Positions 1,788 through 56,957 of a stretch of DNA of 64,000 bases are shown here, in pieces; the first letter of the stretch is position 1, and each line of letters begins with the position of its first letter. The notes beneath the pieces are model-generated. The model saw nothing but the letters and a program-made list of their open reading frames with translations, was not told where the DNA came from and did no database searches. The stretch lies in sequence record NC_052657.1; one strand, given 5' to 3'. The translations under genes and the position numbers were made by a program. This DNA is from Escherichia phage muut.

Positions 1788-2171
1788 TTACTGATAAGCA
1801 GGATCGTTTGTTATATCAATCCAATGAGCTAAATTAATTTTATTTTTTGCTTTCATTTTCTCGATCAAACGTTCGGCTAATGTCTCGGAACGAATATAAA
1901 CATAATCGCTAAAATCTTGCCCCGTTTCTTCGTCGATCATTTCCCTATATTCAACCTTGCCGATAAACGCATGATTCAGCGCATAAGTTTTACCCGTGTA
2001 CCAGTTGTGTAAATGAATCTCGCATTTATAATCGTCGCTATAACCTTCGGTTGTTCTAACTTCAACCAAGTCACCTTTAAACACTGATAAGCACCACATA
2101 GGATCATGATCTACAGCGCCGTTAAAATCTTTACCGTTTACAGTCGCTGCCAGGTTGATGATATTGCTCAT
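1788..2171 (-). CDS. Hypothetical early protein (127 aa)
   Basis: ORF with GAGGAA ribosome-binding site upstream of the ATG; terminator immediately downstream. Confidence 0.55.
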   Translation of the reverse strand: MSNIINLAATVNGKDFNGAVDHDPMWCLSVFKGDLVEVRTTEGYSDDYKCEIHLHNWYTGKTYALNHAFIGKVEYREMIDEETGQDFSDYVYIRSETLAERLIEKMKAKNKINLAHWIDITNDPAYQ

Positions 2172-2246
2172 GGTGATTCCTCGTTTACCGTTTAAAATTG
2201 TTTGCCCTACACGATAACTATAAATTAACAGAGGCTATAAAGCAAG

Positions 2247-2477
2247 TTATTTTTCATAGAATTTTTCTACTGTGATATTCTTCCCAGTGGGATTAGCTAC
2301 TTTCAAAATTTTATCATGTACTGGACGCCCAAAAGAATAAGATCCGTATACAGTAAACCAATAATCGCCGTCAGGCTGTACTATTACCGCCGCATATGGT
2401 ACGCCTTTTTCGTTATTGCTGACAGAATAGATCACATTGCCGTTCAGAGCCACAGCGCGTTTAATTTGTTCGATCAT
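2247..2477 (-). CDS. Hypothetical small early protein (start trimmed to internal Met, about 76 aa)
   Basis: The track ORF 2247..2555 runs through the conserved 5-prime hairpin; the Met at 2477 lies just downstream of the hairpin with an AGGAA ribosome-binding site. Confidence 0.45.
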   Translation of the reverse strand: MIEQIKRAVALNGNVIYSVSNNEKGVPYAAVIVQPDGDYWFTVYGSYSFGRPVHDKILKVANPTGKNITVEKFYEK

Positions 2478-2496
2478 GATATGATTCCTATATTGA

Positions 2497-2555
2497 GCGG
2501 GAAACCACTTCCCGCCTACGTGATACATCTTAGTATAAGGGCGATCCGGTGTCAA
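2497..2555 (-). promoter_or_regulatory. Early promoter plus 5-prime stem-loop cassette (-35 TTGACA at 2550-2555, -10 TAAGAT, hairpin GCGGGAA/TTCCCGC at 2497-2515)
   Basis: Minus-strand reading: TTGACA-N17-TAAGAT, then transcript start, then an inverted repeat ahead of the ribosome-binding site. Confidence 0.55.
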
Positions 2556-2900
2556 TAGGTGAGATTGTAAAGATTTGATAGTTTATTTCTTTAATGTTTT
2601 GTTGTTTGATAGGTGGAAGCTATCAATATATAATAAGATCGTCCGGTGATTATCTTCCCCTGCTCCCAGGTGCCGCCCGTTCCATAATAATAATCAAAAG
2701 CAGGATAAAAGGCAAGATAAAAAGCAAATTATTTCCTATGTGCTTTAAACGCTCTAAATAGTTTTATAACAGCTTTTTCATCCTGGCAAGGTGATTAGTC
2801 ATTGTTACCTTGTTTAAGCGGTTATAATCGGTTTTAGGCTGTTTTACGCCACCTTTTACGTTTATTCTTTACGTGTTACTTCCATCGTGAAAAAAGAATA

Positions 2901-2934
2901 CAAAAAAGGGCGCTTAGTGCGCCCCTTTCTTTTA
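2901..2934 (-). terminator. Rho-independent terminator, hairpin GGGCGC-ttagt-GCGCCC
   Basis: GC stem flanked by an A-run and a T-run; downstream of the minus-strand gene ending at 2942. Confidence 0.6.
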
Positions 2935-2941
2935 CCGTGTA

Positions 2942-3331
2942 TTAATATTCGTTATAATACATTGCTAACTTTTCATCAAAAGCCGATTGACGATCTGCAT
3001 ACTCCCAAAACATTTCCTGATCCTGTTGTTCGTCATCGTCCATCATATTAAATTGCGCAACCTCCTGGTAAGTGATCGCCATATTATAACGATAGGTGAT
3101 CTCTTCTGCGATGTTTTCCGGTAAAGATGATTCTACACTGTCTAACAGCATATTTAACATCATTTCAGCCGCTTTTTCATCATTATCAAAGCAGTAAGCA
3201 GACCATGCCGCATGATGTTTATTTTTCATCTTTGCAATCAAGCCGTTGACTAAAAAAGGCGCTACGTTGTTAACGATACCCTGTAAAGATTGAAATTTTT
3301 CAACGTTAGAAACAGAAACCAGGTTGCGCAT
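2942..3331 (-). CDS. Hypothetical early protein (129 aa, start trimmed)
   Basis: The Met at 3331 follows the promoter/hairpin cassette with ribosome-binding site AAAAAGGTAAA; the track start at 3367 lies inside the hairpin. Confidence 0.5.
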   Translation of the reverse strand: MRNLVSVSNVEKFQSLQGIVNNVAPFLVNGLIAKMKNKHHAAWSAYCFDNDEKAAEMMLNMLLDSVESSLPENIAEEITYRYNMAITYQEVAQFNMMDDDEQQDQEMFWEYADRQSAFDEKLAMYYNEY

Positions 3332-3355
3332 AGTATTTACCTTTTTGATTACCTG

Positions 3356-3413
3356 GCGGGAAACCATTTCCCGCCTACGTGGTAAATAGTACCATATTGG
3401 GGATCGGTGTCAA
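3356..3413 (-). promoter_or_regulatory. Early promoter plus 5-prime stem-loop cassette (hairpin GGCGGGAAA-cca-TTTCCCGCC at 3356-3375; -35 TTGACA at 3408-3413)
   Basis: Perfect 9-bp inverted repeat; TTGACA about 17 nt upstream of a -10-like hexamer on the minus strand. Confidence 0.55.
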
Positions 3414-3419
3414 TACTTT

Positions 3420-3806
3420 TTATTCAATATAAATCAAATTATCTTCACCAATGTAAGCATGCACCGATGGCATTAATTTAGCTGCATTTGTTAGGCGGTT
3501 GGCGGTGTTAGTAGTGTATATTTCAGGGCGATCCCAAAAGCCTACGCCGTGACCGTTACGGGTGAAATGTAAGTCATTCCCGATCTGGTTTGCTGTTGCG
3601 CCGTCGCTCATTGCCTCAGAGATAGCAGCATCATTGGCATCACAATAAGCCGCTACGTCATGAATGATCCGCTGATGGGCTTGATCTGAAAAATCATAAT
3701 CGTCTAAGTTATCAATAAAATTACCTTCATGATCCCTAGCTGATTCAGCAAAAATAAAGGCTTCTTTATAACCGTTGATGATTTCAATAATGATTTCTGT
3801 TTTCAT
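3420..3806 (-). CDS. Hypothetical protein (128 aa)
   Basis: ORF; its start overlaps the stop of the upstream gene (ATGA overlap), suggesting translational coupling. Confidence 0.55.
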   Translation of the reverse strand: MKTEIIIEIINGYKEAFIFAESARDHEGNFIDNLDDYDFSDQAHQRIIHDVAAYCDANDAAISEAMSDGATANQIGNDLHFTRNGHGVGFWDRPEIYTTNTANRLTNAAKLMPSVHAYIGEDNLIYIE

Positions 3807-4036
3807 GCTGTACGCTCGACAATAATAATGGTTTGCGGTATCTCGTTTTCTACTACTAACAAGGCTTTTTTCTGTGTGATAGATATTTTAACACGTTGTA
3901 AAGTAGCGGTAAAATCTTTCATTTCATTATGCGCGGATTTAGTGCAATGCCAGATCTCAGGCTTACCTATTTGCAAGCCGCGTAAAAATTCTGTTTTACC
4001 TGTCTTATTCGTGATCATTTGATTCACCTTATCCAA
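3803..4036 (-). CDS. Hypothetical protein (77 aa)
   Basis: ORF in an operon-like arrangement with 3420..3806. Confidence 0.45.
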   Translation of the reverse strand: MDKVNQMITNKTGKTEFLRGLQIGKPEIWHCTKSAHNEMKDFTATLQRVKISITQKKALLVVENEIPQTIIIVERTA

Positions 4037-4151
4037 TACCGTGGGAAGATAGGATCATGTTAGCCATAGTTGCAACCAATCCAACCGACAACGCCAGGCC
4101 AACTATTACAACCGTGAAAATTTTCTCTAACATGATTCTACCCTCATTAAT

Positions 4152-4213
4152 GGGCGTTGCCTTATTGCCCCGCCCTATGTCGTACACTTTACCAGATAAC
4201 CGCGTATTGTCAA
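4152..4213 (-). promoter_or_regulatory. Early promoter (-35 TTGACA at 4208-4213) plus imperfect GC-rich hairpin
   Basis: aaaatagTTTGACA motif shared with the other early promoters; GC-rich inverted repeat gggcg...cgccc. Confidence 0.4.
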
Positions 4214-4214
4214 A

Positions 4215-4409
4215 CTATTTTTTATAAGGGATCAGTAAACTTCTTGCTACCGCTTCACGTAAACCTTCCCTTTTTATCAGGTCTATTGTTGCAGGGTGGC
4301 AAGTAAAAGCCTTTGACCATTTTTGATCACCTGGTTTACGGGCGAAAATGTAAACTTCTCCGTCGATTTCATCCCAACGAGTATTGCTTGTTAGTTTTTT
4401 AAGCGCCAT
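4215..4409 (-). CDS. Hypothetical small early protein (64 aa, start trimmed)
   Basis: The Met at 4409 lies downstream of the hairpin at 4431-4450. Confidence 0.45.
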   Translation of the reverse strand: MALKKLTSNTRWDEIDGEVYIFARKPGDQKWSKAFTCHPATIDLIKREGLREAVARSLLIPYKK

Positions 4410-4430
4410 GCTGATTTCTCTTTTAGTTGT

Positions 4431-4488
4431 GAGCGGCACTATTGCCGCCCTACGAAATACATTCTACCCGATTTATAATTGTTGTCAA
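4431..4488 (-). promoter_or_regulatory. Early promoter plus 5-prime stem-loop cassette (-35 TTGACA 4483-4488, -10 TAGAAT, hairpin GGGCGGCA-atag-TGCCGCTC)
   Basis: Minus-strand TTGACA-N17-TAGAAT followed by an inverted repeat. Confidence 0.55.
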
Positions 4489-4489
4489 A

Positions 4490-4759
4490 CTATTTTTTCA
4501 AGCTCGACCAGTCAAAACACGGGGCGATCTCGTTAAAACTTGTACCCTGTAAAGCACATAATTTTTTAGCAATAGCCGCCGTAACCTGGCGTTGTACGCG
4601 CGGATCTGCTACTGATTGGAGAAAATAGGCGGTTTTATATGTGATCATGCTTTCGCCTGTTTCCTTGTTAACGTGGTGCACGGTTTTAGCCTTATCATCT
4701 TTTACCAGGGTGTAACCGGATTCGATGGCCTTGATTGCAACGTCCAAAGATATTTTCAT
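4490..4759 (-). CDS. Hypothetical early protein (89 aa)
   Basis: ORF with ribosome-binding site AAAGAGGTAAAT; 5-prime hairpin GGCGGGGGA-gtatt-CCCCGCC (plus-strand 4779-4799) upstream. Confidence 0.55.
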   Translation of the reverse strand: MKISLDVAIKAIESGYTLVKDDKAKTVHHVNKETGESMITYKTAYFLQSVADPRVQRQVTAAIAKKLCALQGTSFNEIAPCFDWSSLKK

Positions 4760-4806
4760 GATTTACCTCTTTATTGACGGCGGGGAATACTCCCCCGCCT
4801 TATTAA

Positions 4807-4977
4807 TTACTCTTCATCGTCGCCGTTATAGTATTCAATGCCGTTTTCATCGGTTACGGTGATGTTAACGCCACCAATAGCAACACGATCACGGGCAAAC
4901 GTCATGGCTTCATTTAAATCTTCAGACCAAAAAATATTGTGACCTTTGCGCGATACATAAAACATAGTTGGGATCAT
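4807..4977 (-). CDS. Hypothetical small early protein (56 aa, start trimmed)
   Basis: Internal Met downstream of the hairpin at 4999-5018. Confidence 0.45.
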   Translation of the reverse strand: MIPTMFYVSRKGHNIFWSEDLNEAMTFARDRVAIGGVNITVTDENGIEYYNGDDEE

Positions 4978-4998
4978 GATTTGTTTCTCTTCTGTTAT

Positions 4999-5057
4999 GA
5001 GCGGCACTATTGCCGCCCTATGTGATAAACTTTACTACGTTGTTTGCCTAGTGTCAA
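4999..5057 (-). promoter_or_regulatory. Early promoter plus 5-prime stem-loop cassette (-35 TTGACA 5052-5057)
   Basis: Same hairpin sequence as the 4431 cassette (gagcggcactattgccgcc); TTGACA upstream on the minus strand. Confidence 0.5.
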
Positions 5058-5058
5058 A

Positions 5059-5343
5059 TTATTTTTTAATGTTTTGCCCTACAAAATTAATCACTTCCTT
5101 AAGCTGTTTCTCAGTCATGATCGTGCCTGGCAATTCTTCTTTGATTTCTTCCGGTAGATAGATATTACCGCGCCAGGTTAATAAACAACCGTTTTGATCT
5201 TCGCAGATAGAATAAGAGAAGATCCACTCATTATCATTCTCAAGCTCCCAAAAGCACAAAAAATCTTCTTTCCCCAGGTTTTCAACGGTTAAACATAAGC
5301 CGCGACGTGCTGCATAGTTGGAAAGTGCTTTTGTGATCTTCAT
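5059..5343 (-). CDS. Hypothetical early protein (94 aa)
   Basis: ORF preceded by cassette (hairpin 5363-5384, -35 at 5420-5425, -10 TATATT). Confidence 0.55.
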   Translation of the reverse strand: MKITKALSNYAARRGLCLTVENLGKEDFLCFWELENDNEWIFSYSICEDQNGCLLTWRGNIYLPEEIKEELPGTIMTEKQLKEVINFVGQNIKK

Positions 5344-5362
5344 AGCTTATCTCTTCTTTTAA

Positions 5363-5425
5363 GGCGGGGAAACCATTTCCCCGCTCTATGAGATACAATA
5401 TACTACCCGTTCGGTGTGCTGTCAA
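5363..5425 (-). promoter_or_regulatory. Early promoter plus 5-prime stem-loop cassette
   Basis: GGCGGGGAAA-cca-TTTCCCCGC inverted repeat; TTGACA-N17-TATATT on the minus strand. Confidence 0.55.
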
Positions 5426-5749
5426 TCAATAATCTTCAATATTTTCTACATTGACAAAAGCATGTTTATTTTCTAAGTTTTCGCCGTACCATTGCCCCAT
5501 GTTGATTTCTGCGGTGCGCAACCAGGACATGCCGCGCTCTATCTTTTTACTTGCAATCTCGATCCGGCTTTTGCATAGTGCTTTCGCTTGCAATGTAAAA
5601 ACACTATTGCCCTGTAATGCTTCCAGGTCATCATGTGCAAGGCGATACTCTTTAAAGCCTGATTCTATCATTTCAATCGCATCAAGGAAACGAGCGCGAT
5701 GATAGAAAAAATCAGAGTTATCCAAATAAACACCGATCACAGATTTCAT
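5426..5749 (-). CDS. Hypothetical early protein (107 aa, start trimmed)
   Basis: ORF; internal Met chosen. Confidence 0.45.
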   Translation of the reverse strand: MKSVIGVYLDNSDFFYHRARFLDAIEMIESGFKEYRLAHDDLEALQGNSVFTLQAKALCKSRIEIASKKIERGMSWLRTAEINMGQWYGENLENKHAFVNVENIEDY

Positions 5750-6078
5750 AATTTTACCCTTTTGTTTGCGGCCTTTGCCGTTTTCAAGATATAGTTTAAA
5801 GCATAACAAAAAATTGTCAAGCCTTTAAAGCGTACAACTATAAAACCTATTAAAACACAATGCATAACAACATGGCTATAGTAGCAATACAACATAAAGC
5901 CATGCTTGTTTTCCTTCCTTCCTCGTATGCTGGATTTATTACGCTATATTGTACGGGAATAATTTTCATGCTGTTTCCTTAATGTCTTAAAACGTGGTTT
6001 ACAATAGAAACAAGTATACAGAAGAAAAAAGATCCTGACAATAAGATCCCGAAAAATAAATGTAAATAGGGCATGGTT

Positions 6079-6381
6079 TTACTCCTTAAAAAAATCATTG
6101 ACAATTAAACTGATAACGCCCAGCACCAGATCACCAGGTAGCGCCGCGCTTTCGTTGTTGCTTGTTTGCACTTCCTCACTAGTACCAGCATGATAGATTG
6201 CATGGTAAGCAATAGTACAATAACCTTTCGTTATTTCTTTAAGATTAATGATTAGCACGTTATTTGTTTCATCTTGAAACAATTTAGCGGTGATAGTATT
6301 GTTTTCTTTTACACTATCGACTTTTATTGATGGATCATTTACACCAGAAAAAAGAAAAAACGTTTTAGCTATGCCGTTCAT
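6079..6381 (-). CDS. Hypothetical protein (100 aa)
   Basis: ORF; hydrophobic N-terminus. Confidence 0.45.
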   Translation of the reverse strand: MNGIAKTFFLFSGVNDPSIKVDSVKENNTITAKLFQDETNNVLIINLKEITKGYCTIAYHAIYHAGTSEEVQTSNNESAALPGDLVLGVISLIVNDFFKE

Positions 6382-6428
6382 GTAGTTCTCCTTTGTTGTG
6401 TGTATCTTATAACGTGCTTTCTATGTTG

Positions 6429-6842
6429 TCAATCTTTTATCTCGGTGCATTTTGCTAGGGTATACGTTGCAAGTGCTGACACTAGTTTTTCATTGCTACG
6501 ATCTGCGGCTGTACTGTGTACTTTTTGAATACTTTTTAACCACGGCGTAAAATTTTGAGTAGTCAGCACACTGGTAATAATTTCACATGGCACATCTTCA
6601 TTTAAGCCGTTAACAATAGACTTATCTATTTTTGCCGTTAGTTGTGTAACAGCACCATAAGCGATCATGTGTGAATCCTCCATGATTTCATCGGGGATCG
6701 CATTATTAATAAGCATGACGTTTTCCATTGCATCAACGGCGCTTAATTCTGCTACTGTGGAGGATATCGCCGCGCTAGATGTTCCAACCATGCCAAAATA
6801 GATTAAACCAGCGATCAATAAGTTTTTCATTTCTTGCCTCAT
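6429..6842 (-). CDS. Hypothetical secreted/periplasmic protein (signal-peptide-like N-terminus)
   Basis: N-terminus MKNLLIAGLIYFGMVGTSSA resembles a Sec signal peptide. Confidence 0.55.
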   Translation of the reverse strand: MRQEMKNLLIAGLIYFGMVGTSSAAISSTVAELSAVDAMENVMLINNAIPDEIMEDSHMIAYGAVTQLTAKIDKSIVNGLNEDVPCEIITSVLTTQNFTPWLKSIQKVHSTAADRSNEKLVSALATYTLAKCTEIKD

Positions 6843-7021
6843 ATATGTTTTATTGAGATTATATTGTCACTATATACAACGTTTTTCAACGTGTCAATAA
6901 AAATCTTATTGCCTTCAATCCCCAGGATCACGCCGCTAGTTATGAAGCCATATTGATCACGATATCGGGCGCATAACCTTTGCCCCTGGGCTAGTGCCTT
7001 GCTTATTTCGTCTAATTTCAT
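6839..7021 (-). CDS. Hypothetical small protein (60 aa)
   Basis: ORF overlapping the start of 6429..6842 by 4 nt. Confidence 0.45.
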   Translation of the reverse strand: MKLDEISKALAQGQRLCARYRDQYGFITSGVILGIEGNKIFIDTLKNVVYSDNIISIKHI

Positions 7022-7111
7022 TTTTAAAGCTCCTGTAAAGCTGTCTAACGTGGTTTATAGGCTTATCCTGGCGTTACCATTGCCTATGGGTAACAAGCCT
7101 CTATATAAGCT

Positions 7112-7139
7112 AAAAGGGCGCTTATTGCGCCCTTTTTTG
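7112..7139. terminator. Bidirectional rho-independent terminator, hairpin GGGCGC-ttatt-GCGCCC
   Basis: GC stem flanked by AAAA and TTTTTT. Confidence 0.6.
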
Positions 7140-7140
7140 T

Positions 7141-7278
7141 TATTCGTTCCAGTATCTTTTTGTGCTGCGATCTCTTTTTGTTTTGTTCCGCTTATCGCCT
7201 TTTTTGGTGATCTCTTCGTTCCAATTTTTACGCGCCTTGCTGCGGTTGAATTTTTCGATCTGCTGTGATGCGTTCATG
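7141..7278 (-). CDS. Possible small basic protein (45 aa)
   Basis: Hand-translated MNASQQIEKFNRSKARKNWNEEITKKGDKRNKTKRDRSTKRYWNE; ribosome-binding site AAAGGAAAA; terminator just downstream. Below the ORF-track cutoff. Confidence 0.3.
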
Positions 7279-7292
7279 TTTTTTCCTTTTAA

Positions 7293-7652
7293 TCACGCCA
7301 CGTTATGCTGTTTTGCCAGGGTTACGATCATGCTTGCAATATATAACCAATAATTTTCCCGCTCACGGGTAACGGTTGTTTCTCTGCTTGTTTCTTTTAT
7401 GTACTTCCATTCAATTAACAAGTGATCGATCTCGTTATAATCAAAAGCAATATTGATTTCTGACGGTAAACCTTGTAACCAGGAGGCTATCGCCTTGATC
7501 ATGTTATGATTGTAACGTTTTTGATTATCGGGATACCAGTATTCAGAATTAAAACGGCGCATCAGTTCGGTGATTTTTTCTTTTTCGGTTGTAGTACCAT
7601 CAAAAGAAATAGCCGACAAAATGTAAGTTTTAATTGCTTTTGCTGATTTCAT
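7293..7652 (-). CDS. Hypothetical early protein (119 aa)
   Basis: ORF preceded by hairpin 7673-7693 and -35 TTGACA at 7726-7731. Confidence 0.55.
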   Translation of the reverse strand: MKSAKAIKTYILSAISFDGTTTEKEKITELMRRFNSEYWYPDNQKRYNHNMIKAIASWLQGLPSEINIAFDYNEIDHLLIEWKYIKETSRETTVTRERENYWLYIASMIVTLAKQHNVA

Positions 7653-7672
7653 AATCTTATCTCTTTATTGAT

Positions 7673-7731
7673 GGCGGGAAACCATTTCCCGCCGTTGTTG
7701 TTACTTTACTTATAAATGATGCTACTGTCAA
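7673..7731 (-). promoter_or_regulatory. Early promoter plus 5-prime stem-loop cassette
   Basis: GGCGGGAAA-cca-TTTCCCGCC perfect inverted repeat with TTGACA upstream. Confidence 0.55.
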
Positions 7732-7738
7732 GCGAATA

Positions 7739-7909
7739 TTATTTATTTTTTAACGTTAATGTTCCCAGCTTATCAGCGTGACGCAGACCAGGAAAGATCC
7801 ATTTTCCTGATTCATCTTTCACCGGGGCTTTAAGCGTAGCGCCCAGGTTGGCGGCGTTAACTTTACGTGCAACGTTGCGAGCGGCTTCACGGGTGGCGAA
7901 AGTGATCAT
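7739..7909 (-). CDS. Possible small protein (56 aa)
   Basis: Hand-translated ORF with ribosome-binding site AGAGGAAAC, downstream of hairpin 7933-7954. Below the track cutoff. Confidence 0.3.
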   Translation of the reverse strand: MITFATREAARNVARKVNAANLGATLKAPVKDESGKWIFPGLRHADKLGTLTLKNK

Positions 7910-7932
7910 GATGTTTCCTCTTCTCTTTGTTA

Positions 7933-7993
7933 GGCGGTGGGCTATTCCACCGCCTTAATGAATATAGTTTACTGATTTTAGTTATCTTGTCAA
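7933..7993 (-). promoter_or_regulatory. Early promoter plus 5-prime stem-loop cassette
   Basis: Hairpin GGCGGTGG-aatagc-CCACCGCC; TTGACA at 7988-7993. Confidence 0.5.
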
Positions 7994-8001
7994 GATTATT
8001 T

Positions 8002-8229
8002 TTAGTTTAATCCATCCAGGCACAACAAGCGATCAACGTTTAGATCGGTTAGGCTAATCGTTGGCACCTGGTAGGATTCGATGTACTCAACGCTCGACCA
8101 TTGCCCAAAGTTAGCGACCGCCCAGCTATTCAAGGAGGAGTGAAGATCATCCCCTTTCTTCTCTGTGATAACTGCTACTACCTGAGAGATTCCAACCGTA
8201 CCGGATACGCGAACAATAACGATAGCCAT
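8002..8229 (-). CDS. Hypothetical small early protein (75 aa)
   Basis: ORF preceded by cassette 8252-8312. Confidence 0.5.
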   Translation of the reverse strand: MAIVIVRVSGTVGISQVVAVITEKKGDDLHSSLNSWAVANFGQWSSVEYIESYQVPTISLTDLNVDRLLCLDGLN

Positions 8230-8251
8230 AATGATAACCTTTCTTTGATTT

Positions 8252-8312
8252 GGCGGGAAACCATTTCCCCGCCTTATGTGATAAACTATACCAGATTAAA
8301 AAACGTTGTCAA
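8252..8312 (-). promoter_or_regulatory. Early promoter plus 5-prime stem-loop cassette
   Basis: GGCGGGGAAA-tgg-TTTCCCGCC; TTGACA at 8307-8312. Confidence 0.5.
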
Positions 8313-8321
8313 CTGCTTTTA

Positions 8322-8561
8322 TTACATTCCTACCATAGCGGCGCGGATACTGGTTTTACTGAATTTATAGCCATCTGGCGTAGTATTTTCGCCCATTTCG
8401 TTAAGTAGTGACATCATTTCACGCGCGGCGTTATCTTTATTGTTGTTCACGGCTATAAATTCTTTTGCCATATTATAAAAACCTGGATCGTTATTAATCC
8501 AAAGGCTTACATTCCAATGAGTTTTATTTTTGTGACCGTTGTACATTTTAGATTTAGCCAT
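8322..8561 (-). CDS. Hypothetical small early protein (79 aa)
   Basis: ORF preceded by cassette 8586-8644. Confidence 0.5.
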   Translation of the reverse strand: MAKSKMYNGHKNKTHWNVSLWINNDPGFYNMAKEFIAVNNNKDNAAREMMSLLNEMGENTTPDGYKFSKTSIRAAMVGM

Positions 8562-8585
8562 GATGTTAATCTCTTTTTCAGTGAG

Positions 8586-8644
8586 GCGGGAACTATTCCC
8601 GCTCTCGATGTAAACTATTATACAGTACTAAGATACTTTGTCAA
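8586..8644 (-). promoter_or_regulatory. Early promoter plus 5-prime stem-loop cassette
   Basis: GCGGGAA-tag-TTCCCGC; TTGACA at 8639-8644. Confidence 0.5.
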
Positions 8645-8647
8645 TAC

Positions 8648-8923
8648 TTAAGTATTGTAAATGTCGTGAATAGTGATAAAGTTTTTACGACCGTAAACAT
8701 GTAAATCAGTATCAATGTAGTGCTTATCAAGTACATCCTCGACGCTTAACGCGGTGTCGTGAATATCTTCGTAGAATTGAGGATCTACAATCTTACTTAA
8801 ATCATCCGGCGTTAACTTATCATTAAGCCATTGAACCGCCTGGATATCTGCTTCACGTTTCCAGTCTTCCAGGTTAGTAGTCAGTACTTGTTCGATTTCG
8901 TTAGCTGTCAGTAGAATCCGCAT
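8648..8923 (-). CDS. Hypothetical early protein (91 aa)
   Basis: ORF preceded by a consensus promoter. Confidence 0.55.
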   Translation of the reverse strand: MRILLTANEIEQVLTTNLEDWKREADIQAVQWLNDKLTPDDLSKIVDPQFYEDIHDTALSVEDVLDKHYIDTDLHVYGRKNFITIHDIYNT

Positions 8924-8956
8924 TTTAATGTTTCCTTATCAGTGGTTGATGTAAGT

Positions 8957-8984
8957 ATTATACTCGTTTACTTTCTATTGTCAA
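8957..8984 (-). promoter_or_regulatory. Consensus sigma70-type promoter (TTGACA-N16-TATAAT)
   Basis: Minus-strand TTGACAatagaaagtaaacgagTATAAT read directly. Confidence 0.6.
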
Positions 8985-9106
8985 ACTATTTTATCAGGGG
9001 GAGTTTTTCGTGTGCCTTACTCCTGGGCTACTTAACGGGGTGTTACTTCGTTCCCCCGTCCTGATATGAAACATTTTACGCTTTTTATTCGTGCTGTCAA
9101 TGCTTT

Positions 9107-9472
9107 TTATAAATCTTTTTTACGTTTAACATCGCTTGCATGGCTGTATACAGCGATCCCATTGTCACGGCAAAAACGGGAAAGATACGCGCCGCGTGAA
9201 AACTCTTTACCTTCCAGGTTGATAACCTTGCTAAACTCTTCTAGGGCAACGGTATCAAAATGATCCCCGTATCCATATTGGAACGGCACGTTTACCACTT
9301 CGATCAGTTTACCGCCGATCTCAACGTCAACCATCAAAGAGAAATAAGTATTACCATAAGACTTTTGAAACCAGCGACGGGCGCTAATATGCACCGCTTC
9401 AATGCTGGATAGTTCAATTTTAGCCGTGTTAGCCAGGGTAGCATAAGCGGAAACATTAATATTTTTAGCCAT
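9107..9472 (-). CDS. Hypothetical protein (121 aa)
   Basis: ORF. Confidence 0.5.
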   Translation of the reverse strand: MAKNINVSAYATLANTAKIELSSIEAVHISARRWFQKSYGNTYFSLMVDVEIGGKLIEVVNVPFQYGYGDHFDTVALEEFSKVINLEGKEFSRGAYLSRFCRDNGIAVYSHASDVKRKKDL

Positions 9473-49139: not shown

Positions 49140-51719
49140 ATGGGAGCTTTTACTTTCGACATTGAAAGTAACAACTTGCTTAATGACGAAAGTGTAGATT
49201 ACTTGGCAAGTCCATATCGTTTAAAAGATAGTTTTGCAATGCACTGTATTGTGTGCGAAAGTCATGATACTGGAGAGATTATTGCTTTCCATGATGGTGA
49301 TAAATATCTTTTCGATGGTCGTCCGTATGTTGAGACTGACGGAAAGTATGAATACCGACTGGAGGAATATGAGCATTTAGAATATACCCATTTCCCTCTT
49401 AAAGATTTTCCTGATTTTGTAAATGGAACAGGTAAATTTAAAGGTAATTCAAACTATAAAATTACCAAAGTAGTTGGACATAACATCATTAACTTTGACT
49501 TACTGGCAATTAAATTATTTTTTAAACTCAACTACAGTATTAAGTACAATACTTGGGGTAATAGTAACATTGAAATTTGTGATACTATGATCTTAAGCAA
49601 GACACTAAACCCTGATCGCTTCGGTGGTCATAGTCTGGCAGAGTTATCTAAGAAAGCTGGAGGGGATGTTAAAATTGATTTTAGAAAAAACATCCCTGAA
49701 ACTGAAAGATTTAAAACATTTGCAGCAGATATGCTGTATTACTGTATTTACGATAACAAAGCTAACACCGCAGTGTTCCGTTATTTGATGGAAGAGTGGG
49801 GTGATTATAATAAGTGGTCTGAACCATTTAACTTAGAACAACGTGTAGCTGATATTATTACACGTCAAGAGCACCGTGGCTTTGCTTTCAATATGAAACA
49901 AGCAGAAGATAATATTCGTGATCTGGATGCTCGAATGGAAGCATGTCGTTTAGAGGCAGAACCTGTGCTACCTCCTAAACCTGCTACCAAAGGTTATTTG
50001 AAATCATTCATTCCACCTAAACTACAGTTTAAAAAGAATGGTGAACCTTCAAGTAACATGATAAAGTTTGCAGAGAAACATTCTGGTGAACTTGTACAAA
50101 AAGAAGATGGTTGGTGGTTATTTGCACTAGGTAAAGAGTTTAAACTACCTATTCCAGCAGAAGAACCTATTTGTGATCCTACAGTACCTGCTACTTTAGA
50201 CGACACTACACATATTAAAAACTGGTTAGTTGGTTTAGGTTGGAGTCCATCTGAATATAAAGATAAAGATATCACTCTTAAATCTGGCACTAAGATTAAG
50301 AAAGATGAAGCACAAATGGAGAAAGCTATTCGTGACTATGTTGATCAAACGTTAGCATCTAATTTCTGCCAGGACAGATGTGATCATCTGGAGTGCACAC
50401 CAGAAACTTTGGAATGGAAACTAAGAGATCGTATTGCTAAAGCTAAAGGTCGTGGTGTTAAAGTGCTTACTAACCCTTCCTTTACAAAAGGGCAAGAGAA
50501 AGATATTTGTCCTAACTTGGAAGCACTAGGTGAAAAGTTTCCTTATGCTACGCAGATTGTGCAGTATCTTACGTATAAACACCGTAGGAACTCTATTCTA
50601 GGGGGTGGTGCTGATTGGGAAGAAGATGAAGAGGATTATGATAAAGGTTATCTGGCAGCAGTAAGGGCTGATGGTCGTATACCAACTCCTGCTGCAACGT
50701 GTGATGCAGCTACATCTCGTATGAAACATAGGTTAGTAGCAAATATCCCACGTGTAACATCTCTGTACGGATATGAAATGCGTAACTTATTTGGTGTAGA
50801 AGTTCCAAAATACTTCCAAATTGGTTATGACTTTGATTCTCTTGAGGCAAAAATAGAATCACACTACTGTTGGCGGTACGAGCAGGAACCACACGAATAT
50901 TGTAATGCTCTATTATTGGAAAAACCTAATGATGTTCATACAATGATGGCTCGACGTATTTCTGATACTATTGGGCGTAAGTTTGAACGAAGCCCTGCTA
51001 AATCTGTTAAGTATGGTATTACTTATGGTGCTCAAGCTGCAAAAGTAGCAAAAACTATAGGTAGTGATATGTATACAGGACAGCTTGTATACGATGCTTT
51101 CTGGGAAGCTGCAAAACCTCTTGCACTTCTTAAAGAACGTCTGCATGATTTTTGGGTTAAAACAGGTAAGAAATACATTCTTGGTATTGATGGTAGAAAA
51201 GTACCTACACGATCTGCACACGCAATACTTAACTCTCTGTTTCAGAGTGGTGGTGTTATTTGTGCAAAAAGAGCAATGGTTATCTACGACGATCTTATCG
51301 AAGAAGAAGGATTAGCTGTTGACTTTTTTGTTGATGACTGGAAAAATAAGTCATTCGTTCAACAAATGATTGCATATCACGATGAAGCACAGCTTGAAGT
51401 AACTCGTGATCTGGTGCATTTTAAATGGTTCTCTAAAGAATCTTTAGGTTGGACTCAAGTTGATGATCCAGATGAACAAAAGAAAATTGATAAAGAATGT
51501 TTGGATAAAGTTAATGCCTGGAAAGAAGAGGAAGAGAAACGTACTGGCAAGATTTGGGCTAACGTACATGAGTCTCCAAAAGGTGGTTGGTTTACAGCCT
51601 ACAGTCGTGCTGGAGAATTAGCATCTATCGCTGTTAATAAAGCTGGTGAGTATTACAATCTTAATGTACCTCTCACTGCTGGTTACGATGTTGGTAACTC
51701 ATGGGCCAGTTGTCACTAG
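49140..51719 (+). CDS. Family A DNA polymerase (Pol I / T7-like)
   Basis: Motif A-like YDFDSLEAKIESH, motif B KSVKYGITYGAQAAKVAK, motif C AYHDEAQLEV. Confidence 0.8.
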   Translation: MGAFTFDIESNNLLNDESVDYLASPYRLKDSFAMHCIVCESHDTGEIIAFHDGDKYLFDGRPYVETDGKYEYRLEEYEHLEYTHFPLKDFPDFVNGTGKFKGNSNYKITKVVGHNIINFDLLAIKLFFKLNYSIKYNTWGNSNIEICDTMILSKTLNPDRFGGHSLAELSKKAGGDVKIDFRKNIPETERFKTFAADMLYYCIYDNKANTAVFRYLMEEWGDYNKWSEPFNLEQRVADIITRQEHRGFAFNMKQAEDNIRDLDARMEACRLEAEPVLPPKPATKGYLKSFIPPKLQFKKNGEPSSNMIKFAEKHSGELVQKEDGWWLFALGKEFKLPIPAEEPICDPTVPATLDDTTHIKNWLVGLGWSPSEYKDKDITLKSGTKIKKDEAQMEKAIRDYVDQTLASNFCQDRCDHLECTPETLEWKLRDRIAKAKGRGVKVLTNPSFTKGQEKDICPNLEALGEKFPYATQIVQYLTYKHRRNSILGGGADWEEDEEDYDKGYLAAVRADGRIPTPAATCDAATSRMKHRLVANIPRVTSLYGYEMRNLFGVEVPKYFQIGYDFDSLEAKIESHYCWRYEQEPHEYCNALLLEKPNDVHTMMARRISDTIGRKFERSPAKSVKYGITYGAQAAKVAKTIGSDMYTGQLVYDAFWEAAKPLALLKERLHDFWVKTGKKYILGIDGRKVPTRSAHAILNSLFQSGGVICAKRAMVIYDDLIEEEGLAVDFFVDDWKNKSFVQQMIAYHDEAQLEVTRDLVHFKWFSKESLGWTQVDDPDEQKKIDKECLDKVNAWKEEEEKRTGKIWANVHESPKGGWFTAYSRAGELASIAVNKAGEYYNLNVPLTAGYDVGNSWASCH

Positions 51720-51855
51720 TATCTATTTGATTTTAAAGGAGTTTTATGTGGAACAATCTGTGATTGCCAAGGTTGTTCCGCACTTTTAAACCATTTCATA
51801 ATTAGATGTTTGAACATCTAGAATAACGCAAAGACCATAAGAGATAGGAGAAAAT

Positions 51856-52449
51856 ATGAATATTGAAGATCAAAAAGTACGAGCTTTAGAAGTATTACGT
51901 ATGTGCCAACTGGTAGATCCGTTTGCAATTGTAGCTGGCGGCGCTGTACGTGATTGGCGATTAGAGAAACCTGCGCAAGATATTGATATTTACTTGCGTA
52001 TGCCTAACCACAATACACTCGTACTAGTAGAGAAATTTTTGATGTTGGGTGTTGGTGCACGTAATGTTAAACAACTTACTAAGCAAACAGAACACACTTA
52101 TGCCGAACTACCACATTTGAAATGGGTATTTGAAGCATACTATAAAGATCTTAAGTTTAACTTTATGATCATGGAAGAAGGTGTACGCAGTGAAATCGTA
52201 TGGAACTTTGATGTAGCTATTTGCCTGTGTTACTGGGATGGTCAAAATTATGTATATCATCCAGATTTTGAATTTGCACTGAAAACTAATATTTGTACTA
52301 TTAATCACCGCTACACAGGTAAAGAAGCACACGTCCGTAAAATGGCAGAACGTTTCCCTATGTTCCGCTTTGTAAAAGACGTTTTCATTCCCAAAGAACC
52401 AGAAGTACGTACACTGGATTCATTTAACAACGAAGAATTTAAGATTTAA
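51856..52449 (+). CDS. Pol-beta-superfamily nucleotidyltransferase (CCA-adding/poly(A)-polymerase-head-like)
   Basis: VAGGAVRDWRLEKPAQDIDIYL matches the GGxVRD...DxD head motif of tRNA nucleotidyltransferases. Confidence 0.5.
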   Translation: MNIEDQKVRALEVLRMCQLVDPFAIVAGGAVRDWRLEKPAQDIDIYLRMPNHNTLVLVEKFLMLGVGARNVKQLTKQTEHTYAELPHLKWVFEAYYKDLKFNFMIMEEGVRSEIVWNFDVAICLCYWDGQNYVYHPDFEFALKTNICTINHRYTGKEAHVRKMAERFPMFRFVKDVFIPKEPEVRTLDSFNNEEFKI

Positions 52450-52492
52450 GTGTTGACAAACATTATAATTATGTGTTATTATGAGGACTTGA

Positions 52493-52891
52493 ATGACAGA
52501 TAATCGTTCTAAAATCTTAGTCGAGACGTTCTACAGTAGAGAAACTAATCGTCTTGAGCTAACTAAAAAAGATGTTGAACCTCAAGATAATACCTTTTTT
52601 ATTCAAATACTATGTCTCTTTGGTGGATACAATCGTTTAACAGTGAGAGTAGAAAACAAAGAGATATCTGAAACCACTATCACAAAACGTGAACTAATGC
52701 TACTACAGGATACAATACGAGATGTTTTGGATAATCCTGGAAAAGCAAAAGTAATTAACCTTGGTGGAGAAAAGATACAAATCCTCCATTTCGAAAGTGG
52801 TGAAATAGGATTTGGTATTGGTCTTGGTAAATACCTGTTGGAAGAAACTGACGCTACTCTTTTACGAGAGTTTTGTGTTAAAGTAATGTAA
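52493..52891 (+). CDS. Hypothetical protein (132 aa)
   Basis: ORF. Confidence 0.5.
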   Translation: MTDNRSKILVETFYSRETNRLELTKKDVEPQDNTFFIQILCLFGGYNRLTVRVENKEISETTITKRELMLLQDTIRDVLDNPGKAKVINLGGEKIQILHFESGEIGFGIGLGKYLLEETDATLLREFCVKVM

Positions 52892-52907: not shown

Positions 52908-53855
52908 ATGCCAGTAATTAATTCTGAAATCGACCGTCGTACTAAAAAAGAAGCATTCTGGGCTGAAGGTATCGTTGAATATGTCAAACTAGATAAGTTT
53001 GATGAAATGAAAGTCTCTTATATTAAGGTTGCAGGTCAGCCAGATAAGAAAATTGAATCAACTCACAAAGCATCCCTGCTTATTAAAGAGAAAGGTGCTG
53101 GTGCTGATGATAAAGGTGTTTGGGTTAGCCTAGGTGAAGTTAAACTGCACCCAGAACATGAAAACCTGCAAGTTAAAGATGGTGATAAGTGGATTACTAT
53201 CGAAAAAGGTGTAGAAGTAACTATGGATGTTAAACCTTCCGAATGGAATGGCAAAACATACTACAACTCCTCTAAAGGTAAAATCACTGTTCTTTCAACA
53301 GAAGGTGTTCAGCAAGCACAATCTTCTTCAAAAGGTGGAAATAAGCCATCTAATAACGAAGGTAGCAAGCCTAACTACAAAAAACGTGATACCGTAGGGA
53401 TTGAAACAGGACACGCTGTAAACGGCGCTCTGGAGCTTCTACGTGCTGGTGTGAAAGGTGATGCTTTCGACTTGGCTGGTGTGGTACAATCTGCAACTGT
53501 TACTCTGAAAGCAGAAATTGCTAAAGATCGTGGCGTTGATGTGACTGACTATGATCTTGGTGCTTCAGTTGGACACGCAATTCTTAACGCTTGTCGTGAT
53601 CATACAGGTAAAACTGTAACGGCAGAAGAGATTATTGAAGCTGCTCGTGAAGTTCTTGCTTTGTCTGATAAAGTAGCTGCTGCTATCCGTGGAATGTCTA
53701 CCCCAGTACAAGAAGTTAAGAAAGAAACTAAAAAAGTAGAGAAAAAAGAGCCAGCACCGAAAGAACCAGAACCTGTTGTTCAAGATTTCGATGATGATAT
53801 CCCATTTGCTCCTATTGGTTTGCAGTATGGTCGAAATTTCCTGCACTGTTTCTAA
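52908..53855 (+). CDS. Hypothetical protein (possible ssDNA-binding protein; 315 aa)
   Basis: Position among replication genes and an acidic C-terminal tail (QDFDDDIPF); no diagnostic motif. Confidence 0.4.
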   Translation: MPVINSEIDRRTKKEAFWAEGIVEYVKLDKFDEMKVSYIKVAGQPDKKIESTHKASLLIKEKGAGADDKGVWVSLGEVKLHPEHENLQVKDGDKWITIEKGVEVTMDVKPSEWNGKTYYNSSKGKITVLSTEGVQQAQSSSKGGNKPSNNEGSKPNYKKRDTVGIETGHAVNGALELLRAGVKGDAFDLAGVVQSATVTLKAEIAKDRGVDVTDYDLGASVGHAILNACRDHTGKTVTAEEIIEAAREVLALSDKVAAAIRGMSTPVQEVKKETKKVEKKEPAPKEPEPVVQDFDDDIPFAPIGLQYGRNFLHCF

Positions 53856-53915: not shown

Positions 53916-54647
53916 ATGAGCGAATTTGTAAACAACACCGCATTAAACTACCTGCAAACCCTCGAAAGCAATAGTGTAGATTTGATTCTTACTGACCCAC
54001 CATATGCTATTTCTCGTGACACAAATTTTCAGTCTGGAGAGCCTACTGGAAAAGATACGGATAGATTCCGTGTATCTTACAACTTCGGTGATTGGGATGT
54101 TGTAGATATTCCTTACTTTAAAGAAGTATTCAAAGAAGCCTACAGGGTGCTTAGAAAAGGTGGTACTTGCATAGTTTGGTATGATATCTGGAAGATCCAG
54201 GAACTACGTGAAATCCTTGAACCGCTTGGTTTTCGTATGTTCCGTACCATCGAATGGATTAAAACAAACCCTGTACCCATCAACAGTGGTGTTAACTACC
54301 TTAGTAACGCTAAAGAGATGGCTATTGTTTGTGTTAAAGGTTCGAAACCAACCTTCAATGCTTCCTACCATAAGGGTGTGTTTGAGTATCCTATCTATCA
54401 AGGAGCAGATCGTTTTCATCCAACACAAAAACACTTGACTTTGTTTTGTGACCTTATTAATATACACACCAACGAAGGAGATGTAGTCTTAGACTTCTTC
54501 TCTGGAAGTGCAACAACACAAGTTGCGGCACTTTTAACAGGTAGAGAATACTTAGGCTGTGAAGCCGATGTAAATATTTTTAAGCAAGCGGAGGAACGAC
54601 TAAATGAGTACACTGAACAGCAAAATCACCCTGAAAGCACTGATTAA
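53916..54647 (+). CDS. DNA methyltransferase (N6-adenine or N4-cytosine, beta class)
   Basis: DPPY motif (LILTDPPYAI) upstream of the SAM-binding motif VLDFFSGSATT. Confidence 0.7.
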   Translation: MSEFVNNTALNYLQTLESNSVDLILTDPPYAISRDTNFQSGEPTGKDTDRFRVSYNFGDWDVVDIPYFKEVFKEAYRVLRKGGTCIVWYDIWKIQELREILEPLGFRMFRTIEWIKTNPVPINSGVNYLSNAKEMAIVCVKGSKPTFNASYHKGVFEYPIYQGADRFHPTQKHLTLFCDLINIHTNEGDVVLDFFSGSATTQVAALLTGREYLGCEADVNIFKQAEERLNEYTEQQNHPESTD

Positions 54648-55035
54648 CAATGGTATGAACCTGGACTCTGGTCTGTCTCCAAAGATTTCTATGGCACGAC
54701 TGGAACAAGTTACTGGTCTTCGTCAAGTAAGTAATGGCGGTAAGATTATTCGTGATGACGCTGTACCTTTTAATAAGTTTCAGATTGAACGTCATTACGA
54801 TCCTGTAACTGCAAGCCTCACTGGTGTAACTTTCTCAGGTTATCGTACTGCCGGATACCAGCGTAAAGTTGTAGCTGAACGTATTAAGAGTCGCAAACAG
54901 AAAATTGCGACATTGAAGAAACTGGTAGAGAAAGATGTTTCAGAACTTCTTAACCTGTATGAAACTCTTGAGACAAAAGGTGAAGATCATAAACTCTTCT
55001 CTAAAGAAGATGTAAGCGTAATTTTCACTGATTAA
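54604..55035 (+). CDS. Hypothetical protein (143 aa)
   Basis: ORF with GGAGGA ribosome-binding site; overlaps the methyltransferase 3-prime end by 44 nt. Confidence 0.45.
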   Translation: MSTLNSKITLKALINNGMNLDSGLSPKISMARLEQVTGLRQVSNGGKIIRDDAVPFNKFQIERHYDPVTASLTGVTFSGYRTAGYQRKVVAERIKSRKQKIATLKKLVEKDVSELLNLYETLETKGEDHKLFSKEDVSVIFTD

Positions 55036-55039: not shown

Positions 55040-55072
55040 AAAGAAAAGGAGCCTAATGGCTCCTTTTTGTTT
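55040..55072. terminator. Bidirectional terminator between convergent gene blocks (AAGGAGCC-taat-GGCTCCTT)
   Basis: Perfect stem flanked by an A-run and a T-run; lies between the last plus-strand gene and the first minus-strand tail gene. Confidence 0.6.
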
Positions 55073-56957
55073 ATGTAACATTGACTGTAAATCTGACAAG
55101 AGGTGATAACACGTCATTATCAGCATCATAGTGTGCAACATCAAACACTGTTGTACCTGCTGCAAATCCATATTGTTCAACCTGATCTGCATAAGTAAAT
55201 GTGTAAGTGTTAGTATCCAGGGTTTGTTCTGTAAGAATTGCTGCTGTGAGGACGTTTACATTTCGGAAGTAATGTTTAGTATATCCTGCTGGTTCCCAAG
55301 AGACAATTGCATCTTGGTTAGCTTGTCTTACAGCGGCTCCTCCTGTTGGAACAGACATATCAACCCAAACAGGTGACGCTGATGTTAAGTCTGTACCGTC
55401 TGCTGCCGATTTAGCAAGTTTTGTAGCTGCTGTTTGATATACAGAAGAAATATAATGGATACGACCATCAATACCTTCTTCATAAACATAACCACTGTAA
55501 CGTTCAGCACCATCTACCCAAGAACCAATTATAACATCATCACGTGCTGTAGAGATGGTTCTTTGTACATTTCTGTACTTCTGCCAATCCACACCATTAA
55601 CTTCTACACCATATAAATAAGAACGTCCTAGGATCTGCCAAACAATTTTTGCTTGAGAAGCAGGAACTATTGTACGCATCTTATCAAAGATAGCTATCGT
55701 AGCATCATGGTAACGTGTAGTGTTACTGTACCTACCTGCAACAGTCGAAGATGCTGATACAGCATCATTTTCACCTTGTCCCCAAATAATTGCTTTAACC
55801 TTACTTGCATAAGGTGTGACTTTAGTGATAAAGTTAGTTAAGCATGGCCCATCTGCTGTGTTATCCAGATCATACCAGTAGTTGTCTGGTGTTCCTGTTC
55901 CGGCTTTATCATCTGCATATTTATCTGCTGCTGATGATCCAGAAGCTGCATTTAACGGAAGAACTTCAGCATTTGCTAAACCACGTTGCGTAGCATATGC
56001 ATTACGGGCTGTTGTGCTACTCATTGCTGCTTTATTTGCACCAGATAGTTCTGTAAAGTGTGCATTTACGTTATCTTGTCCAGCAAAGACAATAACTTCT
56101 TTAATGAATGAATCATCTGTAGCTATTGAGCTATTAAAGATAACGGCTGCTGCTTTGGTGCTCTTAACGCTAATTTTAAGGTATGTTGGAGCAAACCCAT
56201 AAAGAGGAATAGAGTCAGAGATATCAAAGTAGGCGTAAGTATTTGTGGTTGTTGTAGTCCACTGGACACTATTATCACTTAAATCTAATACTTCTACAGT
56301 ATAAGTATCACCATCTAGCGGATCAGTTACATCCCAAGCAACACGAACGTCTCCATAACTGTTTGCCACGGCTGTTACATTAGAAATAACAGGAATAGCA
56401 TTAACACCTAAATAAGAACTATCAGAGGCCACAACTGTTCCTTGATACGTTGCAGTACAACCTATACGGCAATTGCCATCTTTAAGAGCAGTTATTAATC
56501 CTGTAGGGCTTACAGTAGCTACTTCTGGATCTGTTGTGGTGTATGTAATTACCATATCTGGAAGGTCTTTAGCACCTTCTGGACTGATTGTAGCAACCAA
56601 CTGTTGAGTAGTGCCTACATCCATAGCCGATAGACTTTCAGTGTACACACTTAATTCTGAAGCATAACCACCAGATTGATCAGTTAAGACAGCACCTAAA
56701 TTATTTTTAGCTGTCATTATTGCATCAAAACCACCTTCGGCAACAAACTCCATCATACCACTATTATCTATAACCATTTTGGTATTATCTGAAGATGAAA
56801 AAGCTATATCAAATAACGCACCATCTTCGGGTGTAACTGTGTATGTCAGTTGTTTTTTACTACCAACTATGGCAATACCAATAGAGGAAGTAGTTATAGA
56901 TGTAGCTGTTACTACTGAAGCTGATGTTGTTGACATAAATAAAGGAATAGGATACAT
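55071..56957 (-). CDS. Tail fibre/tailspike protein with possible carbohydrate-esterase-like region
   Basis: 628 aa, Thr/Ser/Ala-rich beta-type sequence; VFAGQDNVNAHF and IWGQGENDA are reminiscent of SGNH/GDSL esterase blocks (weak). Confidence 0.5.
   Translation of the reverse strand: MYPIPLFMSTTSASVVTATSITTSSIGIAIVGSKKQLTYTVTPEDGALFDIAFSSSDNTKMVIDNSGMMEFVAEGGFDAIMTAKNNLGAVLTDQSGGYASELSVYTESLSAMDVGTTQQLVATISPEGAKDLPDMVITYTTTDPEVATVSPTGLITALKDGNCRIGCTATYQGTVVASDSSYLGVNAIPVISNVTAVANSYGDVRVAWDVTDPLDGDTYTVEVLDLSDNSVQWTTTTTNTYAYFDISDSIPLYGFAPTYLKISVKSTKAAAVIFNSSIATDDSFIKEVIVFAGQDNVNAHFTELSGANKAAMSSTTARNAYATQRGLANAEVLPLNAASGSSAADKYADDKAGTGTPDNYWYDLDNTADGPCLTNFITKVTPYASKVKAIIWGQGENDAVSASSTVAGRYSNTTRYHDATIAIFDKMRTIVPASQAKIVWQILGRSYLYGVEVNGVDWQKYRNVQRTISTARDDVIIGSWVDGAERYSGYVYEEGIDGRIHYISSVYQTAATKLAKSAADGTDLTSASPVWVDMSVPTGGAAVRQANQDAIVSWEPAGYTKHYFRNVNVLTAAILTEQTLDTNTYTFTYADQVEQYGFAAGTTVFDVAHYDADNDVLSPLVRFTVNVT

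Follow-up and report, generated by a model that had tools for sequence, protein, structure and literature searches.

The stretch of DNA analysed here (the window) comprises 64,000 nucleotides of Escherichia phage muut (NC_052657.1), and is 100% identical to Escherichia phage vB_EcoM_ZYD (ZYD) and 98.8% identical to phage phi92. A small nucleotidyltransferase (NTase) gene lies in it together with genes and signals of a replication module, as follows:

49140-51719, plus strand: family A DNA polymerase gene (Pfam DNA_pol_A, E 3e-13; PHROG 17, E 1e-111)
51841-51855, plus strand: ribosome-binding site AGGAG with spacer, the AGGAG ending 6 nt 5' of the NTase ATG
51856-52449, plus strand: muut NTase gene, ATG start, 197 aa, orthologue of phi92 gp158
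52453-52482, plus strand: predicted sigma70-like promoter (TTGACA-18-TATTAT with TG), found by a consensus scan
52493-52891, plus strand: gene of the function-unknown PHROG 16560, a downstream neighbour conserved in Stephanstirmvirinae
52908-53855, plus strand: gene of an SSB-like replication-module protein (PHROG 4477) with an acidic DDDIPF motif near its C terminus, given as context

A first-pass annotation of the sequence had drawn attention to a 197-aa reading frame with the motifs GGAVRD and DIDIY next to the DNA polymerase gene. Both observations were borne out, since the motifs occupy residues 28-33 and 42-46, respectively, and the NTase gene begins 136 bp 3' of the polymerase ORF on the same strand. 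In RefSeq, the phi92 record has the identical AGGAG ribosome-binding site before gp158 and already labels the product 'nucleotidyltransferase'. Moreover, codon differences between the NTase genes of close relatives comprise 20 synonymous versus 4 nonsynonymous changes, indicating that this is a real gene under purifying selection. The polymerase gene upstream serves as context for the NTase, and a functional partnership of the two products is putative only.

The predicted promoter, which starts 4 nt past the NTase stop codon and ends 10 nt before the next gene, agrees with the consensus at 11 of 12 positions and was the best match of the scan within 48.9-55.2 kb. This arrangement suggests that the genes 3' of the NTase could be transcribed separately. 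In the product of the SSB-like gene (phi92 gp156-like), which is annotated as SSB in some records, the SSB-type sequence DFDDDIPF was found 15 residues before the C terminus and not at the tip. Further downstream, a GC-rich hairpin of 11 bp that has T-runs on both strands (55043-55068) lies between the convergent genes 54604-55035 (plus strand) and 55071-56957 (minus strand). Judged from its sequence, it is likely a bidirectional terminator at the border of the replication module and the tail genes.

We also noted variation around the polymerase gene. This gene is uninterrupted in muut (859 aa), and the corresponding region of phi92 (6141-9455 of its locus) is about 736 bp longer and carries one 3315-nt CDS; the annotation of other relatives shows either an HNH endonuclease there or a 'polymerase part I'. 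Such differences suggest a mobile insertion in the polymerase gene, either an intein or a homing endonuclease, which some close relatives have and others lack. Just 5' of its helicase and polymerase genes, phi92 carries four consecutive predicted glycosyltransferase genes (gp163-166; locus 414-3590). Finally, the ZYD record (PQ110661.1) is labelled Vequintavirinae/Vequintavirus, yet is 98.8% identical to phi92, a Justusliebigvirus of the Stephanstirmvirinae.

The short NTase family and its relationship to Gad2

The muut NTase matched PHROG 1614 'nucleotidyltransferase' with an E value of 2e-34. An exhaustive HMMER search of proteins clustered at 50% identity yielded 991 cluster representatives at E<=1e-3, nearly all of which are stand-alone proteins of 175-230 aa (median about 200 aa) that match over residues ~3-175. 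In sets of 127-152 family members, residues G28, G29, W34, D42 and D44 were invariant, and Q6, A10, A27, A30, R32, D33, Y82 and K162 were conserved in more than 90% of the sequences (K162 in 95%). Further conserved features of the muut NTase are F118-D119...C123 and H135-x-D137-F138. Thus, the GGAVRD...DIDIY motif is no chance match. Indeed, A27-G28-G29...D42-I-D44-I fits the signature of the pol-beta superfamily, in which hG[GS] is followed 9-13 residues on by [DE]h[DE]h.

Cultured phages that encode a family member include Stephanstirmvirinae (phi92, phAPEC8 and Klebsiella phage KP13-26), several groups of Vibrio phages, Aeromonas phages and Pseudanabaena phages. The homologue in Vibrio phage ICP1, gp223 (PHROG 10174 type; locus 4959-5372), has only 137 aa, which correspond to the N-terminal half of the NTase domain. 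Since two ORFs are annotated under the NTase match in several ICP1 records, the data suggest that the ICP1 gene is split or decaying. An N-terminal module of ~80 aa ('MKFRV..EH...IQ..LF..GY.W...'), in one or two copies, was seen in the proteins P0062, P0158, P0075, P0036 and P0161; no Pfam domain was matched in the N-terminal extensions of longer family members. Several records named 'Campylobacter phage' (MG0656xx) hold an NTase gene that is 99% identical, and are probably mislabelled coliphages.

The precomputed Pfam match for a cluster representative 99% identical to the muut NTase, as well as for relatives, was PF26128 'Gad2'. Gad2 (Gabija anti-defence 2) has 400 aa and is encoded by ORF159 of Bacillus phage SPbetaL7. 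Knockout of gad2 rendered SPbetaL7 sensitive to Gabija, and co-expression of a homologue from a Brevibacillus laterosporus prophage blocked Gabija (10.1101/2023.05.01.538930). Gad2 has an AlphaFold-predicted NTase domain, and the SPbetaL7 protein was toxic to cells (10.1101/2023.05.01.538930). The published list of homologues includes forms of 214-228 aa, one of which carries the sequence GGSLRD (10.1101/2023.05.01.538930, Supplementary Table 10). According to a 2026 review, how Gad2 works has yet to be elucidated (PMC12904381).

We compared the muut family directly with a set composed of the verified Brevibacillus sequence and eight homologues (Supplementary Table 10), and took the SPbetaL7 sequence from GenBank OQ921347.1. 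In hhalign, the family profile aligned with the verified Brevibacillus Gad2 at 93% probability (E 3e-7, 113 columns) and with the nine-sequence Gad2 alignment at 97.6% (E 3.7e-12, 118 columns, muut residues 19-151). BLASTP of the muut NTase against Gad2 gave 24% identity over 117 residues. On these sequence comparisons, the muut NTase is classified as a stand-alone short NTase domain of the Gad2 family, which is a better assignment than that of a CCA enzyme.

Fold and active site

The AlphaFold2 model of the muut NTase (41-sequence input, mean pLDDT 88.2, pTM 0.83) adopts the alpha/beta NTase fold and no unrelated one. It shows seven strands, the chain ending after two extra head strands and two helices. 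Two extra strands are also found in the class II head, with a strand order of 3-4-5-2-1-6-7 (PMC11646218). The closest solved folds were those of tRNA CCA-adding enzymes and PAP I. The earlier view of the protein as a pol-beta-type NTase with a CCA/PAP-type head fold is thus upheld by the model.

Searches by sequence gave a more restricted picture. A PDB sequence search with the single muut NTase returned nothing significant, and the family profile matched the PDB at E 0.004 over ~40 residues, covering motif A only. With hhalign, the family aligned with E. coli PAP I at 52% probability (51 columns, with only the N-terminal helix and motif A alignable) and with E. coli CCA at 21% (24 columns, motif A only). 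Of the head models that the first-pass annotation had recommended for an HMM search, Pfam PolyA_pol (PF01743), again on motif A only, reached 19.1 bits against a cut-off of 23. The NCBIfam CCA/PcnB models remained below their cut-offs as well (NF009814, 15 bits versus 290; TIGR03671, 13.9 versus 281).

The muut NTase also differs from class II CCA-adding enzymes and PAP in its motifs and domains. Motif B (RRD) is cut to a single D: the muut segment reads W-N-F-D119, with both arginines gone, and position 119 is P, D or S family-wide. The sequence 'FDFTIN' of Gad2 shows family descent from class II motif B (RRDFTINA) with loss of the arginines. The EDxxR of motif D appears not to be conserved; no ED pair was found, and K162 is a possible counterpart of the Arg in a forced alignment of low confidence. 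The neck, body and tail, which bind the tRNA/RNA primer, are absent, the chain stopping where the neck begins; class II CCA/PAP proteins with these parts have about 370-470 aa. Moreover, the median pI of the family is 6.3, unlike what is seen in autonomous RNA-binding polymerases.

We then considered the catalytic carboxylates, whose loss would have spoken against the first-pass annotation. The DxD pair (D42, D44) is in place and invariant; the third carboxylate on the strand beside it was not found. Strand beta5 (residues 99-106) adjoins the DxD strand; class II enzymes have a Glu on it, as seen in 'IIEVATF' of PAP I and 'EEYALAR' of E. coli CCA, whereas the muut NTase has Asn102 there. Across family sequences, this position holds Gln (84%), Asn (12%) or Asp (3%), and it is Gln in eight of the nine Gad2 proteins. 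Since the forced global alignment to class II has low confidence in beta3-beta5, Asn102 is placed at the third-carboxylate position by topology and hairpin spacing, and its equivalence is accordingly presumed from the model. An amide at this position would cast doubt on ordinary two-metal catalysis.

These features raise the question of whether the protein might be a nucleotide-binding pseudoenzyme, which would bind an NTP or a nucleotide signal via motif A, without transfer, and act as a sensor, sponge or inhibitor. The amide in both the short family and Gad2 is consistent with this notion, as is the ~59% conservation of E93, the other candidate acidic residue. However, G28, G29, D42 and D44 are strictly invariant and R32 and D33 nearly so across ~150 diverged sequences, a pattern typical of active NTases. 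In addition, an amide is still able to ligate Mg2+, and D137 of H-x-D-F may provide a third acidic group. We consider a pseudoenzyme very unlikely.

tRNA genes and genomic context

From the motif, the first-pass annotation had proposed that the protein could repair or tag tRNAs, for instance to counter host anticodon nucleases. CCA addition cannot mend anticodon-loop cleavage, and the distribution of tRNA genes did not favor this proposal either. No tRNA gene was found within the 64-kb window. The ZYD genome has 16 tRNA genes (three of them tRNA-Met) at 141.5-144.7 kb of the record, ~100 kb from the NTase gene, and CCA is encoded in all 16. A complete 47-kb Zobellviridae genome with the NTase gene contains no tRNA gene at all. 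A role of the NTase in maturing the phage's own tRNAs is excluded by these observations. Across the family, a tRNA gene was located <=8 kb from the NTase in only 7 of 51 loci, and the NTase gene is thus not linked to tRNA genes.

The ZYD tRNA genes adjoin genes for a ribose-phosphate pyrophosphokinase and a nicotinamide phosphoribosyltransferase, an NAD+ salvage pair that is possibly a counter to NAD-depleting defences.

A broader version of the proposal is that of an RNA/tRNA 3'-end nucleotidyltransferase, which would perform CCA repair or A-tailing or, in a MenT-like manner, tail host tRNA or RNA during host takeover. Such an activity would agree with the closest solved folds, and the label 'tRNA nucleotidyl transferase/poly(A) polymerase' is given to relatives in some records. 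It would also agree with the toxicity of family members to cells, which applies to SPbetaL7 Gad2 and to Emajogi gp22. In phage 4MG (Vequintavirinae), a 474-aa Gad2 homologue directly follows a cluster of 25 tRNA genes and precedes the terminase gene (locus 187-8425). The one setting in which a CCA-related role would be plausible is an uncultured 148-kb phage contig (L013, 11155-14622), where CCA is not encoded in 10 of the 11 tRNA genes and a family NTase gene is situated 2.6 kb upstream of them. However, 23 of the 25 tRNA genes of the 4MG cluster encode CCA, as do all of those in ZYD, and the 47-kb phage has no tRNA gene. The missing body and tail, the lack of conservation of RRD and apparently of EDxxR, the scores of the PolyA_pol, CCA and PcnB models below cut-off and the neutral to acidic pI of the family all argue in the same direction. 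tRNA/RNA 3'-end activity of the muut NTase is therefore unlikely in general, whether as repair or as host-directed tailing, and we give this explanation little credence. The labels 'tRNA nucleotidyltransferase/poly(A) polymerase' on such genes are probably wrong.

We then examined the neighbourhood of the gene across lineages. The NTase gene of phi92, phAPEC8 and KP13-26 is preceded by the DNA polymerase gene, in part with small ORFs between them, and is followed by the genes of PHROG 16560 and the SSB-like protein. In addition, ORFs were called in 80 IMG/VR loci, the neighbours were clustered and their representatives were identified with Pfam. A primase/helicase gene was found <=8 kb from the NTase in 62 of 85 loci, and a family A DNA polymerase gene within the same distance in 47 loci. 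Also recurrent nearby were genes of a putative polymerase of a second type without a Pfam match, of ATP-dependent DNA ligase, and of FEN-like and SSB-like proteins. After grouping of the NTases at >=45% identity, 24 of 31 lineages had one or more replication genes <=8 kb away, indicating that the gene resides in replication modules. No immediate neighbour was conserved across the 31 lineages. In a Zobellviridae phage, the NTase gene overlaps a 5'-3' exonuclease gene by 14 nt.

Similar positions are known for other small NTases, since those of T7-like phages lie beside primase/helicase and DNA polymerase genes (PMC7693777). Emajogi gp22, a small NTase in the same kind of position, was cytotoxic at high induction.

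This context would also fit an accessory enzyme of replication or nucleotide metabolism with no role in defence. Such an enzyme could add untemplated nucleotides to the 3' ends of DNA or primers, or could convert or mark nucleotides, and the anti-Gabija activity of long Gad2 would then be a derived speciality. The residence beside primase/helicase, polymerase, ligase, FEN-like exonuclease and SSB-like genes and the overlap with the exonuclease gene both support this explanation. In class II enzymes the RRD motif reads the ribose 2'-OH, and its loss is compatible with the use of dNTPs. On the other hand, no immediate neighbour is conserved across lineages, and the near-neutral pI argues against autonomous DNA binding. 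Moreover, anti-defence genes are also found in phage replication modules, so that position does not discriminate between the two roles, and anti-defence is the only experimental phenotype in the family. We consider an accessory enzyme without a defence role possible, though rather unlikely.

Proposed role and comparison with known systems

Gabija is among the most common bacterial defence systems. The explanation that we favor, tentatively and with a probability of roughly 40%, is that the muut NTase, expressed with the replication genes, acts as a counter-defence enzyme of the Gad2 type and protects phage DNA from Gabija-type defence by nucleotidyl transfer. For this protein we infer all three of its elements, namely, catalytic activity, action against Gabija or a related system, and the acceptor. 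Compared with class II enzymes, it retains motif A (GG...DxD) for NTP/Mg2+ binding, a fragment of motif B and possibly one of motif D, whereas the body and tail have been lost. The enzyme, produced along with the replication proteins, would use its GG/DxD site to bind an NTP and would pass the nucleotide to an acceptor. As acceptors, DNA 3' ends or a defence protein come into question, as does a nucleotide product by which GajA would be kept inhibited. As a result, replicating or linear phage DNA would be shielded from the Gabija-type nuclease-helicase, as with the 400-aa Gad2 of the Bacillus phage. In a current proposal (PMC12407980), Gabija acts on the ends of linear DNA where RecBCD does not cover them, and a counter-measure located in a replication/recombination module would therefore be sensible.

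Some observations speak against this proposal. The anti-Gabija phenotype was obtained with long Gad2 proteins (~400 aa), to which the muut form, lacking the C-terminal region, is only 24% identical. Moreover, gad2 of SPbeta is situated in an anti-defence locus outside the replication module, in contrast to the muut NTase gene, and the long form of 4MG lies beside a tRNA cluster. Since the mechanism of Gad2 is itself unsolved, homology carries over the phenotype and not a mechanism.

A bolder variant holds that the short replication-module form is the ancestral and commonest form of Gad2, and that its site of DxD plus amide nucleotidylates an unusual acceptor, thereby hiding DNA from end-sensing defences. 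Examples of such an acceptor would be the 3' termini of linear phage DNA and a DNA-end-sensing host protein. The short form does account for ~1000 clusters at 50% identity and occurs in myoviruses, podoviruses and marine phages. Although we judge this variant distinctly unlikely, it would, if true, reveal the mechanism of Gad2 and a new chemistry for a domain derived from CCA enzymes.

Other phage pol-beta NTases have been implicated in counter-defence. The MNT-like phage NTases of Ho et al. (BCP1, Av05) make competitor cyclic dinucleotides, and in this they resemble the role proposed here for the muut NTase. Their clade has the signature GS-x-AY[GAN]T-x4-SDxD plus NP-x-h2-[DE], in contrast to AGGAVRDW...DIDIY in muut. 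The identity of the muut NTase with this group was rejected, since the signature is absent and a PADLOC search of the muut NTase gave no hit. A close structural or sequence relationship to the NTase toxins MenT and AbiEii was likewise not found.

Stand-alone head domains are known from other sources as well. The 'CCA-adding enzyme head domain' of S. pneumoniae (NP_344798.1; PDB 2la3) is a bacterial protein with 10% identity to the muut NTase, and no common Pfam family was detected for the two. The same fold (E 1e-7 to 1e-6) was shared in BFVD by numerous viral proteins of ~165-215 aa, which come from T7-like phages and giant viruses. Head-only NTases like these, among them those of Pectobacterium phages PP2 and DU_PP_II, Dickeya phage Ninurta, Pseudomonas phage phiNV3 and Emajogi (gp22), occur in T7-like phages, other phages and giant viruses; they have a predicted fold similar to that of muut, and some are annotated as members of the Gad2 family. 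These small NTases were not recovered by tblastn with family members and thus represent more distant lineages.

The closest comparison is with Gad2 itself. Gad2 and the muut family are both phage encoded and have in common AGG, D-h-D-h-[YF], a Gln or Asn in beta5, FD..(V/I)C and H-x-D-F. In Gad2 proteins, the beta5 Gln is seen in 'LQIQLI' and 'KLQMIHF', and the other elements read FDFT(V/I)C/N and H-E-D-F; the phi92-type proteins have FDVAIC and HPDF. Motif A differs, being GGAITSLF in Gad2 and the class II-like GGAVRDW in muut. With 197 aa versus 400 aa, the muut protein corresponds to the NTase domain only and lacks a C-terminal region of ~230 residues. Residues 171-400 of Gad2 had no counterpart anywhere in the 64-kb window, and the possibility that the PHROG 16560 neighbour or another window gene represents the missing C terminus was rejected, the downstream gene being unrelated. 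Synteny between the long Gad2 gene of 4MG and the short gene of phi92 was likewise rejected, since the two loci differ; Vequintavirinae have the long form and Stephanstirmvirinae the short one, and the two forms appear to be mutually exclusive.

The muut NTase gene had a nucleotidyltransferase annotation before, and its product belongs to a named Pfam family, so that what is new is a short, replication-module member of that family and not a new kind of protein. It presents the Gad2 NTase domain as a minimal protein of ~200 aa in the well-studied coliphages phi92 and phAPEC8, and thus as a small and tractable model. The descent from a class II CCA/PAP head, the loss of RRD, the apparent loss of EDxxR and the conserved Gln/Asn at the third-carboxylate position provide handles for experiments, and the position of this short Gad2 relative in the replication module hints at its substrate.
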